From an uncultured Candidatus Woesearchaeota archaeon (GTDB lineage Archaea; Nanobdellota; Nanobdellia; UBA10117): a stretch of 64,000 nucleotides of DNA. Within the stretch, counting starts at the first letter, position 1. The number at the start of each line of letters is the position of its first letter. The notes under the pieces were generated by a model. That model searched no databases. It had not been told where the DNA came from and was given only the letters and a program-made list of their open reading frames with translations. Location of the stretch: positions 3,968-67,967 of the forward strand of contig CAIPHS010000005.1 of the NCBI GenBank assembly GCA_903864915.1, read 5' to 3'. Positions 5,060 through 15,675 of this stretch are shown here, one piece after another. Position numbers and translations under genes: made by a program.

Positions 5060-5108
5060 ATAATGATTAAAGAAAAAAGTTCTTTTAAAAACATGTCGCA
5101 GTTCGCGA

Positions 5109-8028: not shown

Positions 8029-8655
8029 CTAGGTTGTCAAATATTTGCGGAAGTCAGAAATTATCTTTGCGTAATCATCTTTCTCAACAATTTGCCAAGC
8101 TCGGTAATAACTCTCCGATTTAAAAGTCTTAGACCGTTCGATTTCTTTCTTAAGGGTTTTTTCGTCAAAATATTTCAAAATAATGTGTTTGAGCAAAGCG
8201 TGCAACAATATGTGATTTTTAGCATATATTTTTTCATAAGGGTATTTTTTTGCAATCTCGTTAAATGCTGCCGCAAAGTTATTTTTGAAATCAGATTGCT
8301 GTGTAAATAATTGGTGAACTAACTCGTGAATAAGCGTTTGAATAAAAATACTAACGGATTTTGGGTATTGCGCCTGATTAAGAATACTTATTGTTAGAGG
8401 GTCTGCAAATGACGAATATAAACTCATAGTTGTTACGTAGCATTTTATTTTACGTTCAGACCACTTCAAACCTGAGACTATTGACAATTCAGATAAAACT
8501 TTCTTCTCTATTTTTCCCCATACTGGTTCAAGCACTTCTATATATTTAGAAACTCTTTCCGAACATTTTTCCTGGTCGTAATGCCTGATCCAAAATTTCT
8601 CCACTATTGTCTTATCATAAATAAATGAGTAAACAAATTTAACTTCAGGTATCAT
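8029..8655 (-). CDS. putative zinc metallopeptidase (HExxH); paralog of 57375..58007
   Basis: LIHELVHQL motif. It aligns along its whole length with the protein at 57375..58007 (MIPEVKFVYSFIYDK / MIPKVEFVYSMIYDK ... YRAWQIVEK / YEAWQIVEK). Confidence 0.7.
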   Translation of the reverse strand: MIPEVKFVYSFIYDKTIVEKFWIRHYDQEKCSERVSKYIEVLEPVWGKIEKKVLSELSIVSGLKWSERKIKCYVTTMSLYSSFADPLTISILNQAQYPKSVSIFIQTLIHELVHQLFTQQSDFKNNFAAAFNEIAKKYPYEKIYAKNHILLHALLKHIILKYFDEKTLKKEIERSKTFKSESYYRAWQIVEKDDYAKIISDFRKYLTT

Positions 8656-8718: not shown

Positions 8719-9183
8719 TTATGCGCAAGTATTTGTTGGCTTATGAAGTAATTCTATTAATTTTTCATAATACTCAGCTTCGTTAGAGTAATAGATGTAT
8801 TCAACATTAGCTACTTTCTTTAAGCCTATTACTAGGTTACTGTAGCCGTTGCTTTTTTCCAACAACAATATAATCCTCTTGCCTAATGCGGAAGCCCAGC
8901 CCAACTCAATGTGAACTCCACCAGAAGGATATTTACCAGGAAATGCGATTAAAATATCCGCTTTGGAAATCTCATCATAGTCTATCTTGGTACAGACGTC
9001 TGGGTGCATCCACTCTTCGCCCCATTTCTCTCTCAGATGTGCGTTGTGCACCTCGCATCCGTTTTTTTCCAAAAACTGGATTAGTCTGCTTAGGCTAGTT
9101 ACATCTTCATTGTTCATTTTCTTTTCAGCAGAGTTCATTACATTTTGAAACGGCGCTGCTAAGAAAACTTTAGTTTTTCTCAT
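8719..9183 (-). CDS. nucleoside 2-deoxyribosyltransferase-fold protein (NDT/Rcl/BlsM-like)
   Basis: N-terminal KVFLAAPF and catalytic-Glu segment SGGVHIELGWASALGKRIILL. It overlaps the upstream radical SAM gene by 14 nt. Confidence 0.75.
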   Translation of the reverse strand: MRKTKVFLAAPFQNVMNSAEKKMNNEDVTSLSRLIQFLEKNGCEVHNAHLREKWGEEWMHPDVCTKIDYDEISKADILIAFPGKYPSGGVHIELGWASALGKRIILLLEKSNGYSNLVIGLKKVANVEYIYYSNEAEYYEKLIELLHKPTNTCA

Positions 9184-10168
9184 TTTTCACCACACCATAA
9201 TTTTTAATGGAGTCTTCTAATCTTTGTTTAAATGACCACAAACAACCCTTGCAGTTGTCAGTAATTGTTTTGTTTTCTTCTATGAATTCCACATACTTTT
9301 TTGTTGTTAAATCGAAAATGCTTTTGTCAGATATTATTCCATTTGGACAAATAACCAACTTGCCATCATTATTAACTGACAAATCATACACGCCGCCATT
9401 ACAATTATAATTAAATTCTCCTTTGAAATACTGACTTAATCTTGATAGCGTGAAATCTCCATCCATTAACAAAGCTCCTTCGTTTTTCATCATTAGCAAC
9501 TTCTTCACGATAACTTCAATTTCTGCGCTGTTCTTTTCAAGCGAGAGTGCTTTTGTATTATTTTTATTAATATGATTTTGCATCATAATCATTAATTTTG
9601 TAGGAATTTTTAGTGAAGAAAAGTAACTTACTATTTCTGGCAGCTCCATCAAATTATGTCTTGTCACAACAGTAGAAACTGTGGTATCAAATCCGTAATT
9701 GGATTTGCTGATATGTTCTAATGTTTGAGCTAATTTATCAGTTAGCGGTTTTCCCCAAGCACTATTCTTATTAAGCGTGTCTACAGAAATGCAGAGAAAA
9801 TCTAATTTCGCGTCGCTAAGGTCTGCAAGATATTTTTTATCGAGTAACAAACCATTTGTAGCGATAGAAACGAACGCGTCTCTTGATGATGCGTGGCGGA
9901 CTATATCTACCAAATCGGATCTAAGTAGCGGTTCACCACCAGTAAACACTATATCGCGGTTCCCTAATTTATAAATAACATCGACCGCATTTTTCCAGTC
10001 ATTCTGCTTTAAATCTTTACCAGTATTAACATATAATTCAGAACAATAAGCACATCTTAAGTTACATTTTCTAGTAAGCCTGACGCATGCAAGAACCGGG
10101 TGAATAATACCATTATTTGCATTTTTTAAGCTGTGATTATAAGCTTCTTGTTTAAAGGGCCTAACCAT
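9170..10168 (-). CDS. radical SAM enzyme with a SPASM-like C-terminal Cys-rich domain (rSAM-C)
   Basis: CNLRCAYC cluster motif and FTGGEPLL. C-terminal Cys residues lie in NCNGGVYDLSVNNDGKLVICPNG...CKGCLW. Start set at ATG 10168, which has AGGTGA 5 nt upstream; the ORF-track GTG at 10177 lies inside that SD. Confidence 0.85.
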   Translation of the reverse strand: MVRPFKQEAYNHSLKNANNGIIHPVLACVRLTRKCNLRCAYCSELYVNTGKDLKQNDWKNAVDVIYKLGNRDIVFTGGEPLLRSDLVDIVRHASSRDAFVSIATNGLLLDKKYLADLSDAKLDFLCISVDTLNKNSAWGKPLTDKLAQTLEHISKSNYGFDTTVSTVVTRHNLMELPEIVSYFSSLKIPTKLMIMMQNHINKNNTKALSLEKNSAEIEVIVKKLLMMKNEGALLMDGDFTLSRLSQYFKGEFNYNCNGGVYDLSVNNDGKLVICPNGIISDKSIFDLTTKKYVEFIEENKTITDNCKGCLWSFKQRLEDSIKNYGVVKNEKN

Positions 10169-10253
10169 GCAATTCACCTTCTTTTGTAAATTGTGCGACG
10201 CTTCCCATTTTGTTTTGGAACGGAGCTGTAAGGAAAATTTTATCTGTTTTCAT
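10161..10253 (-). CDS. 30-codon mini-ORF, a copy of the 5' end of the NDT-fold gene (relic or small peptide)
   Basis: Hand translation gives MKTDKIFLTAPFQNKMGSVAQFTKEGELHG. Its ATG overlaps the M20 gene stop (ATGA) and its stop overlaps the rSAM-C start by 8 nt. The first 18 residues share 11 identities with MRKTKVFLAAPFQNVMNS of 8719..9183. Confidence 0.3.
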   Translation of the reverse strand: MKTDKIFLTAPFQNKMGSVAQFTKEGELHG

Positions 10254-11425
10254 TCCTTCACCTGCCCTAGTCCCTTCACAATTAATGCATAGATTTGCAC
10301 TGCTCTTCCAAGTTCTCGAATATCAACTTTTTCGAAAGGTGTATGTGCATATTCTACAGAACCGGGCCCCGCTATTATTGCGTCTATGCCTGCTGCTCTA
10401 AAAATCGCACCTTCAGTCCAGCCTGGGTGCTGCATAGGTCTAGAATTTGTCCCAGAAATCTTGTTATAAACTTCAATGCAGAGATTTGTAAAATTTTTGT
10501 TTTTGGGGGTTAGCATCGGACTTCTTTCCGGACCAAAATCAACAGTTTTTTTTATTTTTATATCTGCGTTGCTATTACATGATTTATAAAAATTCTCAAG
10601 CAACGCATTTATGGCATTTATATCGCGCTTTGCAGATTCGCCAGCGAGCACCCTTCTATTAATGAGCATTTCAGCATAGTCAGGTATACCTTCCGAACCA
10701 CCTTTTATCGAGCACGTAACGAAAAGTGAATTTTGATTTGAACGTTTAGTGACATTGTCGATATAATTGTTCTTTATGTAATCGTAGGCTCCCAAAAGAT
10801 TATCGATTGCGTTATTTCCAAATGATGGTGCAGATAAGTGTGCTGATTTTCCATATGATTCCAATTTCAAAAAGTAAATGCCTTTGCAAGAGTCATATAT
10901 CTTAAGTTCCGTAGGTTCTGAAACAATACAGTAGTTAGCATCAAGTTTTTTTGCTAATTTAATTGCACCAGGCGAACCACCTCCTTCTTCACCATCAGTC
11001 ACTGCAAACGCAAGATTTATGCCTGGATTTTGTCGTGTTTTTTTAATGTACTTGAATAAGTACATAACCGCAGCCAGACCTCCCTTCATGTCGGCGGCGC
11101 CTCTTCCGTAAAGAAAGTTGCCTTTAATTTCTCCAGAAAATGGGTTTTTCATAAAATCAACATTTGTCGTGTCAGAATGACCGTTAAACAACAGAGTTTT
11201 GTCTGCCCCATAATCTAAATAAGCCACAGGAAGCGGGATTTTTCCAGAGTACTCAACTTCACAAGGTATGTTATTTTGCTCGAACCAGTTCATTATAAAT
11301 TCATTAACTACAGTTTCCTTAGTCTCGACTTTGGAATGGCTTGGTATCCTAACTAGCTTCGAAGCAAGGTCTGCAACTTGTCTATTGTTAGTTTTGTATA
11401 CATCATTAAATAACATGTTCATCAT
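10250..11425 (-). CDS. M20-family metallohydrolase (ArgE/DapE/acetylornithine deacetylase-like)
   Basis: FNGHSDTT, GRGAADMKGG and AVTDGEEGGG metal-ligand motifs. Start moved to MMNM at 11425; the longer ORF overlaps the upstream gene by 86 nt. Confidence 0.85.
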   Translation of the reverse strand: MMNMLFNDVYKTNNRQVADLASKLVRIPSHSKVETKETVVNEFIMNWFEQNNIPCEVEYSGKIPLPVAYLDYGADKTLLFNGHSDTTNVDFMKNPFSGEIKGNFLYGRGAADMKGGLAAVMYLFKYIKKTRQNPGINLAFAVTDGEEGGGSPGAIKLAKKLDANYCIVSEPTELKIYDSCKGIYFLKLESYGKSAHLSAPSFGNNAIDNLLGAYDYIKNNYIDNVTKRSNQNSLFVTCSIKGGSEGIPDYAEMLINRRVLAGESAKRDINAINALLENFYKSCNSNADIKIKKTVDFGPERSPMLTPKNKNFTNLCIEVYNKISGTNSRPMQHPGWTEGAIFRAAGIDAIIAGPGSVEYAHTPFEKVDIRELGRAVQIYALIVKGLGQVKE

Positions 11426-12752
11426 TCCATAGTCCTGCTCCCAATACAGAAAGCATCCACAAACCCCACCAGAACGAATCAAATAAAACATAATAAATAA
11501 TTCCCGGCAGCATCAAGCCCATTGCCATTTGCTGTTTGCCTGAAACTGTCGATCCGGCACAGCCTATTGAAAGGCAAGCACCTACTCTTACTAACTCATC
11601 GCTATCATTTATGTCTCTTTTTAAATCGGTTAAATTTGCCTTTTTTTGTCCAACCGATGCAAAACCTGCACCTAAGTTTGCACCCCATCGCACATAGCTA
11701 CTTTTATCTCCCAATAGCGGACCGAAATGTTGTTCCGCACCTTCTTTTCCGGAAAAAGCAAGGCCCAAGCCCAAACTTGCGCCCCAACGAACAGAACTAT
11801 CCACGTCTTTGAATAATCCACCTAAAGCACTAAGAGAATTTTCGCCTTTCCCCATAAAACAAAGACCCAAACTTAAACCCACGCCGCTTCTAACTATTGA
11901 AGATTCATCCTTCAACAAATCCAAAACTTGTGCAATCTTTTGACCACTGCTCAGACAAGATACTCCAACAGCGAATGAAGAACTTTCCCTAACATAAGGA
12001 TGAGTATCTTTAAGGCAACCAAATAAGGCATCAAGCAATTCACTATCGCGCTTGCCCATATTTGCAAAACCAATACCGAGGCACGCCATATCTCGCAGGA
12101 GCGGGTTCTTGCTATGCATAATCCTTGCATATTCTTCCAGTGACTTCTTGCCCTGGAAGGCATATGCTGTGCTTATGAACCATCCAGTACAAAGGTTTAC
12201 GTATGGATTTTTTTCTTCAGCTATTAGCGCTAGCACTTTGTCAAAGAGTTTTTCTCCGTGTCCCATGCATCCAAAGCTTAATGATAGCCCTGCCACTGCG
12301 CGAATTCTCCAATTAGGATCTTTCAACAGAGGGAATATTATCCGAATGAAATCTTCGCTTCCTGCACCGAGATTTACTAAGCCTAATCCCAAAATCGCAC
12401 TTTTGCGCACATCAACGCTAATCTCTTCCTTAATAATGCAGCTCAAAATCTCTACAACAGTTTCGTTGCAAGTCCCTAAAAAACCAAATCCTAATGAAAG
12501 GCATGCGCTGCTTTTCACAAAATCATCGTCAAAAAAAAGCAAAGGTCTTAGCAAATTTATGCAATTAATGTCACCCTTACCAAAATATTTTATGCCAACA
12601 GCCAGGCAACCACCAATTCTAACATCAATCGGTTTATCGTCTCTCAAGAACTCTTCAACTATAATATTAACTTCTTTCTGGTTTCCTATATATTTCAGAC
12701 TATCTCCAAAATATTTCCCGAACTGGACGTAAAAATTTGGATCGGATTTCAT
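11406..12752 (-). CDS. PC-repeat (Rpn1/Rpn2/APC1-type, HEAT-like) solenoid protein with a C-terminal membrane anchor
   Basis: 11 repeats of about 36 aa with the pattern xxVRxGAxLGLGLxxxGxG (e.g. DSSVRWGASLGLGLAFSGKEG, SSYVRWGANLGAGFASVGQKK). The hydrophobic C-terminus reads GLMLPGIIYYVLFDSFWWGLWMLSVLGAGLW. Confidence 0.75.
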   Translation of the reverse strand: MKSDPNFYVQFGKYFGDSLKYIGNQKEVNIIVEEFLRDDKPIDVRIGGCLAVGIKYFGKGDINCINLLRPLLFFDDDFVKSSACLSLGFGFLGTCNETVVEILSCIIKEEISVDVRKSAILGLGLVNLGAGSEDFIRIIFPLLKDPNWRIRAVAGLSLSFGCMGHGEKLFDKVLALIAEEKNPYVNLCTGWFISTAYAFQGKKSLEEYARIMHSKNPLLRDMACLGIGFANMGKRDSELLDALFGCLKDTHPYVRESSSFAVGVSCLSSGQKIAQVLDLLKDESSIVRSGVGLSLGLCFMGKGENSLSALGGLFKDVDSSVRWGASLGLGLAFSGKEGAEQHFGPLLGDKSSYVRWGANLGAGFASVGQKKANLTDLKRDINDSDELVRVGACLSIGCAGSTVSGKQQMAMGLMLPGIIYYVLFDSFWWGLWMLSVLGAGLWNDEHVI

Positions 12753-13738
12753 AGTTCGCCCCCATTGTACCCAAGCAATTTAAGGAATCTTTGATTTTCA
12801 ACGTGCGTGCTAATTGAAACCCTCACGTAGCTTTCTGGCAAATATTTGAAAAACTCGCTGGAGACAACAACGCGCTTTTCAGCAAGATTCTTTAATTTTT
12901 CAGGAGGTAATTTCAGAAGATAGCAAATAGTCTCAGTCTTATTCACTGTTGAATCCTTAAGATACTTTGACAAATAATCTTTTTCTCGCTTAAAATGGTC
13001 TATAGATTTGTCTACAAAATCCGCATCCTTAAGAGATTCCAGCGCAGCTATCTGGGATAAAAATGCTGTTTTGAAAGGTGAGGAATATTCCTCTAATGCC
13101 TTGATTATTTTTTCACTCGACAAAACATACCCAACTCTCATACCAGCCAAGCCATATAATTTCGAAAATGACCTTGTTATAATCAAATTGTCGTAGTTTT
13201 TTAACAAATCTTCATTTCCATGTTTGTTGTATAGCAATGCTTCATCCAAAACAACCAGATTAAAATTACTGAGCGCATCTTTCAAGAAAGATTGTGAAAC
13301 TGACAGACCAGTGGGATTACTTGGTGTGCTTAACAGCAACACATCACCTTTTTCCGAAAGAACTTTTGATTCATCGAGCTCGAAATCATTTATTGGTGGG
13401 ACATATTTAATATTACCTCTGCCAATGTTACTATAATACTCATATCTTGGGAAGCAGGGTGCAGGCGTCACTATATTTTTCTTATCAAATAACGCCAAAC
13501 TTGCCAAAGTCAATCCGCCATCCGCGCCATCAGACAGTAGAATATTTCCCAAGTTTGAATTCGTTAATATTGATATAAGTTCTACGAGCTCTTCATTAGA
13601 ATGATAATACTTGTTAAGCAAACTTGAATTTTTAATCAATGCTTGCGTAGCCTGCTGGCTTGCGCCGAGAGGATTTTCTATCATAGACAAATCTAAATGG
13701 CCATTCCTCCTGTAGTCCGCATAATCCTTATACGACAT
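12749..13738 (-). CDS. class I/II PLP-dependent aminotransferase (HisC/CobD-like)
   Basis: LLLSTPSNPTG and the PLP-lysine motif RSFSKLYGLAGMRVGY. At 329 aa, it is short like CobD-type decarboxylases. Confidence 0.85.
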   Translation of the reverse strand: MSYKDYADYRRNGHLDLSMIENPLGASQQATQALIKNSSLLNKYYHSNEELVELISILTNSNLGNILLSDGADGGLTLASLALFDKKNIVTPAPCFPRYEYYSNIGRGNIKYVPPINDFELDESKVLSEKGDVLLLSTPSNPTGLSVSQSFLKDALSNFNLVVLDEALLYNKHGNEDLLKNYDNLIITRSFSKLYGLAGMRVGYVLSSEKIIKALEEYSSPFKTAFLSQIAALESLKDADFVDKSIDHFKREKDYLSKYLKDSTVNKTETICYLLKLPPEKLKNLAEKRVVVSSEFFKYLPESYVRVSISTHVENQRFLKLLGYNGGEL

Positions 13739-14657
13739 TTTTATTGTGTCCTAATGCATTTGGCATTATGATTTCTGCACCGAGCTTGTCACTAACATAC
13801 AGCGGGCATATTGGCACATAATCAGAATCGCATCTTGGGTCGTGGCCGTATTCTTTATTGTATACCGGGCAACCCCCACCACAACTTTTGCAGTTCTGAG
13901 GTGAAACCTTTACGGGTTTTATGCCATCACATCCCGGAAAAGAATTTACTGAAAGGCAGCAAGGGTAGCTTTTACCATCAGTGTCAACAAAGATATTTTT
14001 TCCAGACGGGCAGATCAGCTGCTCTATATTTGGGGTATTTTTTTCCGCGAAAGCTGGTTCAAAATATATTTTCTGAGGACAATTCTTGCTTTTTTCCATT
14101 AAAGTATCTAACATACCATACCATTCCTCAGCGCAAATTACCTTCAGGTTCGAATCGCCAAGCGAAGTCGGATACAGAAACAAATTTTTGTTCAAAATAG
14201 ATAAGTCACTCAAAAACTTGTCAACTTTATTTTCGAGTGTTTCTTTTGTAAGAATAGTCTGTGTAGTGATGTTCAAACCTTCTCTTACAGCGGCACGTAT
14301 ATTGTCAAGAACTTTTGGATCACCATTATAGCTGACATAAACTGCCACATCGAATTTTTTCAATTGCTTAGCTACGTCTGTTGTTAGTAAATCCCCATTC
14401 GACAGCAGATTAACATCATACCCTAAATTTCTGGCAGTTTGAATTATGTCAAAAATATCTGCCCTGATCAGTGGCTCACCACCAGTTAACGTAAGTATGC
14501 CTGCATTCGTTAAATTTAAAATATCTATTACTTTCTCGTAGGGCAGCTCGCCATTTTTGTTTTCCAGATAGCAAAATCCGCAATCACGGTTGCATCTTCT
14601 TGTTATATTCATAGCTAAGTCAAAATCAGAATGCCGTTCAATGTTCTTAGTGACCAT
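13728..14657 (-). CDS. radical SAM enzyme with a SPASM-like C-terminal domain (rSAM-B)
   Basis: CNRDCGFC and LTGGEPLI. C-terminal Cys residues lie in CPSGKNIFVDTDGKSYPCC...CKSCGGGCPVY...CPLY. Start chosen at ATG 14657, 1 nt after the upstream stop. The ORF-track start at 14741 would overlap the upstream gene by 83 nt. Confidence 0.8.
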   Translation of the reverse strand: MVTKNIERHSDFDLAMNITRRCNRDCGFCYLENKNGELPYEKVIDILNLTNAGILTLTGGEPLIRADIFDIIQTARNLGYDVNLLSNGDLLTTDVAKQLKKFDVAVYVSYNGDPKVLDNIRAAVREGLNITTQTILTKETLENKVDKFLSDLSILNKNLFLYPTSLGDSNLKVICAEEWYGMLDTLMEKSKNCPQKIYFEPAFAEKNTPNIEQLICPSGKNIFVDTDGKSYPCCLSVNSFPGCDGIKPVKVSPQNCKSCGGGCPVYNKEYGHDPRCDSDYVPICPLYVSDKLGAEIIMPNALGHNKNVV

Positions 14658-14658
14658 G

Positions 14659-15675
14659 TTACTTTTGTATCTTGTATACCTCATCTTCTTCGAATCGCCA
14701 GCAAGAGGGGTCTGGAGCACGCATATCTTTGAAAACAGCATAAGCTACGCCTCTGCAGCCGTAGCATTTAGAATTGGACTCGCATGTCCCGCAAGTGCCC
14801 TTAAGTTCTTTTATCGCCTGTCTGCAGTCCTTAGCATTATCAGACTCCCAAATATCTTTTAGGTTCTGCTCATTTAAGTTTCCAATTCTCAACTCGACAC
14901 CAGAACAAGGTTGTACGTATCCTTCTACATTTACATGTACGCCGGTTTTAATTCGGTCGCATAGTTCAGAATCGCAAGATAATACTGGAGATTCTCCGCT
15001 GAGCTCTTTCAAGTCGACCATTATTTTTCTAAGTTCTTGCCCTAAAACAGCGTCATTTATTCCGCACTTTTGAGAAGGTATGGCGTGATTCAAAACAGGT
15101 TTTATGCCTTTTGACAGCGCCCATTTCCAAGTGTCTAGTATGGTATACTTATTCTTCTGCATTGCAGTTAAGATTATGTTCAAATCTTTGTCTTTGGTAT
15201 AGCCAACATCTATTAGCATATCTATCGCATCTAATTTGCGCTTCAGTGTACCTGGAACGTCAGTTAGACTATCTTCTATATCTTCAACTATCGACTCTAG
15301 GCTTACTCCTATATTTACGTCAAGATCGTGCAGTTTTTTCGCAATCTCTGGCGTTATGTTTGTGCTATTTGTTACTAACAGAACTTCAACATCTTTATCA
15401 CGCAAATATTTTATGACATCAAACAACTTCTCGTACAAAAGAGGCTCCCCGCCGGACAGCTGTATTCTCTTTAAGCCGTACGATATCGCATCATCCAAAA
15501 TATGATATAATTTGGGCAATTCCATTGTCTTTGGCTTTGAACCGCCAACGTAACAAAAAGTGCACTTCAGATTACAAACCTGCGTAAGCGCCAAAGACAT
15601 GTATGAAAATTTTTCTTCTTTCGCATCTAGGAAATTCCAGTTATCTTCAAGACACTTGGAATCAGGGTCTGCCAT
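14659..15675 (-). CDS. radical SAM enzyme with a SPASM-like C-terminal domain (rSAM-A)
   Basis: CNLKCTFC and LSGGEPLL. C-terminal Cys residues lie in VQPCSGVELRIGNL...GTCGTCESNSKCYGCRGVAYA...DPSC. Confidence 0.85.
   Translation of the reverse strand: MADPDSKCLEDNWNFLDAKEEKFSYMSLALTQVCNLKCTFCYVGGSKPKTMELPKLYHILDDAISYGLKRIQLSGGEPLLYEKLFDVIKYLRDKDVEVLLVTNSTNITPEIAKKLHDLDVNIGVSLESIVEDIEDSLTDVPGTLKRKLDAIDMLIDVGYTKDKDLNIILTAMQKNKYTILDTWKWALSKGIKPVLNHAIPSQKCGINDAVLGQELRKIMVDLKELSGESPVLSCDSELCDRIKTGVHVNVEGYVQPCSGVELRIGNLNEQNLKDIWESDNAKDCRQAIKELKGTCGTCESNSKCYGCRGVAYAVFKDMRAPDPSCWRFEEDEVYKIQK

Follow-up and report, generated by a model that had tools for sequence, protein, structure and literature searches.

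The 30-codon open reading frame (ORF) between an M20-family gene and the radical SAM gene rSAM-C of this archaeal operon is probably (at roughly 80%) the leftover 5' end of a relocated CMP-N-glycosidase-like (NDT-fold) gene, located at the ancestral position of that gene in the operon. The stub, as it is called here, is an ordinary scar of a gene-order change and not a new peptide gene, and no new mechanism is required. For annotation it matters that the 81-nt "gap" between M20 and rSAM-C is best read as a pseudogene stub and holds no precursor-peptide gene; the cluster should not be classed as a RiPP system on account of the stub ORF.

The window, i.e., the whole stretch of 64,000 nt that was analyzed, belongs to a 650-kb, 13-contig genome assembly that is roughly 83% complete and carries intron-bearing tRNAs (tRNA matches of 100 to 112 nt), a sign of an archaeon with a small genome. 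Its minus-strand operon comprises genes for a SPASM radical SAM protein, a further radical SAM protein, an aminotransferase, a HEAT/PC-repeat protein and the M20 protein, followed by the stub, rSAM-C and NDT; a homolog of p140, the gene that opens related clusters, is located further upstream. The features around the junction have the following window coordinates:

10250..11425, minus strand: M20-family peptidase/deacylase gene; its TGA overlaps the stub ATG (ATGA)
10258..10262, minus strand: GGTGA Shine-Dalgarno-like motif within the last M20 codons, 4 nt 5' of the stub ATG, as read from the sequence
10161..10253, minus strand: stub, a probable NDT-fold / CMP-N-glycosidase-like 5' remnant (truncated) plus 12 codons of unknown origin
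10200..10253, minus strand: stub codons 1-18, homologous to NDT-family N-termini (beta-1 strand and FLxAPF-Q loop)
10161..10199, minus strand: stub codons 19-30 and TAG, including the rSAM-C ribosome-binding site GGTGA (10178..10174)
9170..10168, minus strand: radical SAM gene rSAM-C, whose 3' end overlaps the ribosome-binding site and start of NDT by 14 nt
8719..9183, minus strand: full-length NDT-fold gene, uniquely downstream of rSAM-C

The stub extends from ATG to TAG (10253..10161, minus strand) and translates as MKTDKIFLTAPFQNKMGSVAQFTKEGELHG. The M20 stop codon TGA (10252..10250) and the stub ATG form an ATGA overlap (10253..10250). At the other end, rSAM-C starts with the ATG at 10168, as shown by alignment with nine orthologs and their conserved MVRxYKQxAY start, and since it is fixed there, the stub TAG overlaps the rSAM-C start by 8 nt (ATGGTTAG). 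The ribosome-binding motif of rSAM-C precedes its ATG by 5 nt, and GGTGA is found before the stub, rSAM-C and NDT alike. The 30-codon ORF, its ATGA overlap with M20 and the 8-nt overlap with rSAM-C, all reported in a preliminary description of this DNA, are thus borne out by the sequence and the ORF list. The stub was annotated by no gene caller in four assemblies, each of which leaves an 81-nt gap there. In several freshwater-sediment samples, the M20/stub/rSAM-C junction recurs at 100% identity in independent assemblies and in Logan contigs, and the stub sequence is therefore no assembly artefact. A search of the M20/rSAM-C gap for structured RNA returned no Rfam family and a fold z-score of -1.3. 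The M20 and rSAM-C genes share one reading frame, with nothing but the M20 TGA and 27 open linker codons between them (window 10169-10252, minus strand), which looks coincidental because TGA is a normal stop in this genome. Read-through of this TGA, fusing M20 to rSAM-C, was considered and rejected: TGA ends 120 of the 436 long ORFs, and both genes are separate in relatives.

Homology to the NDT 5' end is the basis for the identification of the stub. Its residues 1-18 are identical to the start of the NDT-fold protein (9183..8719, MRKTKVFLAAPFQNVMNS) at 11 of 18 positions, exactly the likeness that had been described before, and the nucleotide alignment against shuffled controls, which had been proposed at the same time, places the similarity above chance: the local score was 41 versus 17.9 +/- 2.6 in 2,000 shuffles, none of which reached 41, i.e., about 9 SD above the shuffles on the basis of 18 codons only. 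When the entire 650-kb genome was scanned in six frames (1.3 million positions), 11/18 was the single best non-self match, followed by 9/18 (once) and 8/18 (three times), and a second NDT copy was found nowhere else in the genome. The stub contains the N-terminal beta-1 strand and the FLxAPF loop with the base-stacking Phe; the family motif reads KIFLTAPFQN in the stub, FLAAPFQN in the window NDT and in locus L034, FLAAPFH in L020 and L032, and VFLAAPFK in BcmB. The upstream similarity, which was said to extend into the Shine-Dalgarno sequence, holds for the shared GGTGAA but for nothing beyond this motif, the 30 nt 5' of the stub ATG and the 30 nt 5' of the NDT ATG being identical at 11/30 positions. 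Confined as it is to GGTGAA, this likeness is indistinguishable from two independent Shine-Dalgarno sites.

The full-length NDT-fold protein of the window is closely homologous to CMP / hydroxymethyl-CMP N-glycosidases, namely BcmB (4JEN, E = 7e-43), MilB and BlsM; on the basis of this homology, the operon probably serves to release or process a modified pyrimidine base. In MilB, Phe22-Arg23 are the base-stacking residue and the specificity/gate residue (PMC4081090), and F12-Q13 of the window NDT align with them. The position of MilB Arg23 is occupied by Gln in the window NDT, Lys in BcmB and Met in BlsM; across the cluster variants it is Q in the window and L034, H in L020 and L032, and A in L016, L019 and L035. 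The stub shares with MilB, BcmB and BlsM (NDT fold, PF05014) the beta-1/loop motif of the family including the base-stacking Phe and the specificity position, but it has Gln there and not Arg, Lys or Met, and it stops after 18 homologous residues. It lacks catalytic and substrate-binding residues, with no equivalents of MilB Glu62, Asp78, Ser97, Gly99 and Glu103, and it is a fragment and not an enzyme, because the ORF stops at codon 30 and codons 19-30 resemble no NDT part. Nowhere in NDT, nor among the C-termini of the NDT family, is there detectable similarity to this tail. A faint "KxxEL" likeness, by which the tail might have been the NDT C-terminus after an in-frame internal deletion, was no better than in nucleotide and protein shuffles, and this candidate was rejected.

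The comparison with related clusters determines which position of NDT is ancestral. Orthologs of rSAM-C with 52 to 61% identity were found in metagenomes and metagenome-assembled genomes (MAGs), and their contigs share a core of p140, SPASM-rSAM, rSAM, HEAT, NDT, zero to three genes (often a racemase) and rSAM-C, the latter usually followed by a methyltransferase. Loci L034 and L035 were found by searching with the M20 protein of the window. The gene orders are:

L014, L016, L019, L021: NDT 5' of rSAM-C, with other genes between
L020, L031: NDT directly 5' of rSAM-C
L034: HEAT-M20-NDT-rSAM-C
L035: HEAT-M20-NDT, with M20 and NDT joined by ATGA; the contig ends inside NDT
Window: HEAT-M20-[stub]-rSAM-C-NDT

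The six clusters in the first two lines all have the order p140-SPASM-rSAM-HEAT-NDT-(0-3 genes)-rSAM-C. NDT is located 5' of rSAM-C in 7/7 related clusters that show both genes and 3' of it in 0/7, and the window is the only version with NDT after rSAM-C; one further cluster has no NDT gene between HEAT and rSAM-C. L034 and L035 have M20 orthologs (43% and 40% identity), each flanked by HEAT on one side and a full NDT gene on the other, and the rSAM-C of L034 is 61% identical to that of the window. The L034 NDT has its true ATG at 5107, overlaps the M20 end by 11 nt and has the N-terminus MPNKKVFLAAPFQNYMDH, and the ATGA overlap between M20 and the full NDT of L035 is exactly like that between M20 and the stub in the window. 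The stub thus holds the syntenic position of NDT, which follows right after M20 in L034 and L035 and right before rSAM-C in L020, L031 and L034. It marks the ancestral NDT position, because relatives have a full NDT gene there with the same M20 junction and the same downstream neighbor, and since L034 has the order M20-NDT-rSAM-C, rSAM-C is ancestral as well and belongs downstream of NDT. The ancestral order is M20-NDT-rSAM-C. In the annotation of L034 (5107-5547), the gene caller chose an internal ATG for NDT (131 aa); the real start (MPNKKVFLAAPFQN) lies 45 nt upstream and overlaps the M20 stop.

The divergence between the two NDT 5' ends allows a rough relative dating of the truncation. Over 54 nt, the stub is identical to the window NDT at 35/54 positions (65%), to L032, the 5' end of an NDT ortholog on an unrelated contig from another organism, at 38/54 (70%), and to L034 at 32/54. 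The 19/54 nt that differ between the stub and the window NDT correspond to a dN/dS of about 0.45 (18 codons). Stub codons 5-14 (KIFLTAPFQN) contain seven differences, of which five are synonymous and two conservative (Ile/Val, Thr/Ala), and the FLxAPFQN core is spared. When 19 substitutions were introduced by simulated random mutation, at least 11 identities remained in 0.3% of the trials and an intact FLxAPF in 0.2%. Because the differences spare the core, the divergence probably arose for the most part while both sequences were functional genes, to judge from the pattern of substitutions, and we infer that the truncation of the stub is comparatively recent. Residues K2, D4, I6 and G17 of the stub are common to L032 and Q13, M16 and S18 to the window NDT, while T3, T9 and K15 occur in the stub only; about as many residues are unique to the functional NDT copy. 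The two sequences could be long-lived paralogs flanking rSAM-C or alleles from diverged cluster variants. That ORF, ATG and ribosome-binding site are intact in spite of 35% divergence may alternatively point to selection on the stub. Searches with the rSAM-C, NDT and M20 proteins, contig look-ups, genome and metagenome scans and sequencing runs returned copies that are either 100% identical or at most 61% identical, with nothing in between in any of the collections; every further copy of the locus is identical, and the stub thus shows no variation by which its decay or its conservation could be recognized.

Two alternative origins have to be weighed against a relocated NDT gene. The preliminary description had proposed that rSAM-C was inserted between M20 and NDT, duplicating in one event a junction of roughly 70 nt (ribosome-binding site plus 18 codons). 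The final map would agree with this proposal, since homologous NDT 5' ends flank rSAM-C in direct orientation with GGTGAA before each of them, and the same arrangement would result if rSAM-C, ancestrally the downstream neighbor of NDT, had moved locally to its other side and duplicated the NDT 5' end. It is nevertheless improbable: rSAM-C is a conserved member of the cluster and is located 3' of NDT in all seven clusters including the M20-bearing L034, the upstream similarity ends at the Shine-Dalgarno motif, and near-identical direct repeats flanking rSAM-C are absent (35/54 nt in the coding part, 11/30 upstream). A single recent junction duplication does not fit, because the copies are only 65% identical, with differences that avoid the conserved core, and the stub resembles a foreign ortholog at least as much. 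A 70-nt target duplication is also untypical of the known insertion mechanisms. No empty site, i.e., M20 directly followed by NDT without rSAM-C, came to light among the related clusters, given that L034 carries rSAM-C and the contig of L035 ends inside NDT. Hence, the stub is a "copy" of the NDT 5' end, as it was called, in the sense that it is homologous and the footprint of a local rearrangement, but not a recent copy of its neighbor. That the likeness between the stub and NDT is mere chance, a spurious short ORF set against a common N-terminal motif, is extremely unlikely. The similarity spans 18 residues only, the FLxAPF motif is short, and an open frame of 30 codons would occur by chance at roughly 15%, as estimated from the base composition; yet the match is the best non-self one among 1.3 million positions with an alignment z of about 9, it runs from ATG to ATG with a ribosome-binding site in front, and its place is precisely that of NDT in the relatives, down to the ATGA junction with M20 that is seen in L035.

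The other alternatives concern the function of the stub. Its 30-aa product might be a maintained peptide, either a substrate or leader of the radical SAM enzymes or a micro-protein acting on the NDT enzyme or on rSAM-C. The open ORF with a strong ribosome-binding site and an ATG, its position wedged translationally between two genes, the FLxAPFQN core kept despite 35% nucleotide divergence, and lineage-specific changes (T3, T9, K15) that are no more numerous than in the full-length gene would all be in line with such a role. The stub resembles precursor peptides of radical SAM/SPASM systems (PqqA, MftA, SCIFF, sactipeptides) as an ORF of about 30 aa right upstream of a radical SAM gene in an operon with several of them. 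It differs from them in that it is unconserved in orthologous clusters, has no Cys- or aromatic-rich core (it is free of Cys, Trp and Tyr) and carries the sequence of an enzyme N-terminus. A six-frame scan of 11 related loci matched only genuine NDT N-termini and none upstream of rSAM-C; a substrate peptide, as suggested in the preliminary description, is disfavored because no related cluster has a comparable mini-ORF. Nor did Pfam detect an RRE/PqqD partner among nine proteins of the operon region (E <= 0.01), a scan that divergent RREs can escape and outside of which the p140 homolog lies. Moreover, a preserved core is to be expected if an enzyme gene was truncated only recently, no catalytic or binding residue is present apart from the equivalents of MilB Phe22/Arg23 (PMC4081090), and the stub would end at the rSAM-C start in any frame. 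A functional peptide is thus very unlikely. It is also rather doubtful that the stub is kept by selection, be it as a relay ORF that passes ribosomes from M20 to rSAM-C and so sets the stoichiometry of the proteins of the operon, or as a 30-aa micro-protein with the base-stacking Phe-Gln loop, whose targets would be the radical SAM or glycosidase enzymes. Read in one of the two other frames, the remnant would either stop 5 nt before the rSAM-C ATG or fuse in frame to rSAM-C, and since any deletion here would give a bridging ORF, the bridging geometry is no evidence of selection.

A coupling function of the stub, which had been offered as a further possibility, is mechanistically plausible. The junctions of the operon, according to the gene calls on the identical contig, are +1, -11, -4, -20, [+81] and -14; counting the stub, the +81 gap is replaced by -4 and -8, and the whole operon becomes one chain of overlaps. 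The geometry of coupling is present with the ATGA at M20, the 8-nt overlap with rSAM-C and GGTGA located 4 nt and 5 nt before the two starts. In archaea and Escherichia coli, termination-reinitiation coupling is almost abolished once the gap reaches about 20 nt (PMC10666635), and because of this collapse the stub would relay ribosomes from M20 to rSAM-C. As ribosome-binding site, ATG and frame are intact, the stub is probably translated. In its ATGA, its 8-nt overlap and a Shine-Dalgarno motif before each start, the locus resembles described termination-reinitiation pairs (Huber et al. 2019, PMC6728339; 2023, PMC10666635), from which it differs in that the link is a non-functional gene fragment, at most a relay, with a geometry that would result in any frame.

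The relocation of NDT may be pictured as follows. The first 18 NDT codons with their ribosome-binding site and ATG would have remained after M20 (ATGA) and before rSAM-C, a full-length NDT copy would have come to lie downstream of rSAM-C in this lineage, and a deletion would have removed the body of the copy upstream, about 125 codons, bringing the NDT 5' end next to the stretch of roughly 35 nt in front of rSAM-C. NDT may have reached its downstream position through tandem duplication of NDT-rSAM-C with subsequent losses, or else diverged cluster variants may have recombined. A search for a second rSAM-C remnant downstream of NDT revealed nothing above noise, and the simple path of tandem duplication and random loss is therefore undocumented. 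With remnants of such duplication-loss events the locus has in common that two neighbors are swapped relative to all relatives and that a short fragment persists at the old site; it differs in having one remnant only, without an rSAM-C leftover, in the still intact and probably translated ORF of this remnant, and in the divergence of the copies, which suggests a long coexistence or diverged cluster variants. Ribosomes that end on M20 would probably reinitiate on the stub, translate 30 codons, stop 3 nt past the rSAM-C ATG and reinitiate there, and the stub would thus passively preserve the termination-reinitiation chain of the operon. Its peptide, one beta-strand and a loop, carries none of the catalytic residues; most likely it is a by-product that serves no purpose itself. 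The locus illustrates how a deletion in nature can leave behind a short ORF by which two translationally coupled genes stay connected, and it could serve as a test case for termination-reinitiation relays. The stub also dates the gene-order swap in a patchily distributed radical-SAM / CMP-glycosidase cluster.

With respect to this distribution, the MAGs with related clusters are labeled Daviesbacteria (CPR), Nanoarchaeota, Bacteroidota and Methanosarcinales, whereas 16 genomes of the same family contain no rSAM-C ortholog, their best matches being generic radical SAM proteins with about 30% identity. The patchy occurrence of the radical-SAM/HEAT/glycosidase cluster and its absence from same-family genomes suggest horizontal transfer. 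The cluster (window 8719-15675 and L014, L016, L019, L020, L021, L031, L034) often adjoins integrase, transposase or Bro-N genes. In the window it is without the racemase and methyltransferase of most relatives and has an aminotransferase and M20 instead. In L033 (8001-11441), an NDT-fold homolog (55% identical) is clustered with thymidylate-synthase-like, methyltransferase and thiaminase-like genes, which corresponds to the gene set of bacimethrin-type hydroxymethyl-pyrimidine pathways. The C-terminus of the window rSAM-C (…NYGVVKNEKN; 9170-9195, minus strand) is 3 to 5 residues longer than in most orthologs; its coding sequence here coincides with the Shine-Dalgarno motif and opening codons of the NDT gene that follows, so that the formation of the new rSAM-C/NDT junction reshaped the end of rSAM-C. 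The operon is followed by a gene for a 208-aa protein (window 8029-8655, minus strand) that has no Pfam match and no counterpart in related clusters; a 51%-identical paralog of this protein is encoded about 49 kb away on the same contig (about 57375-57995, plus strand).
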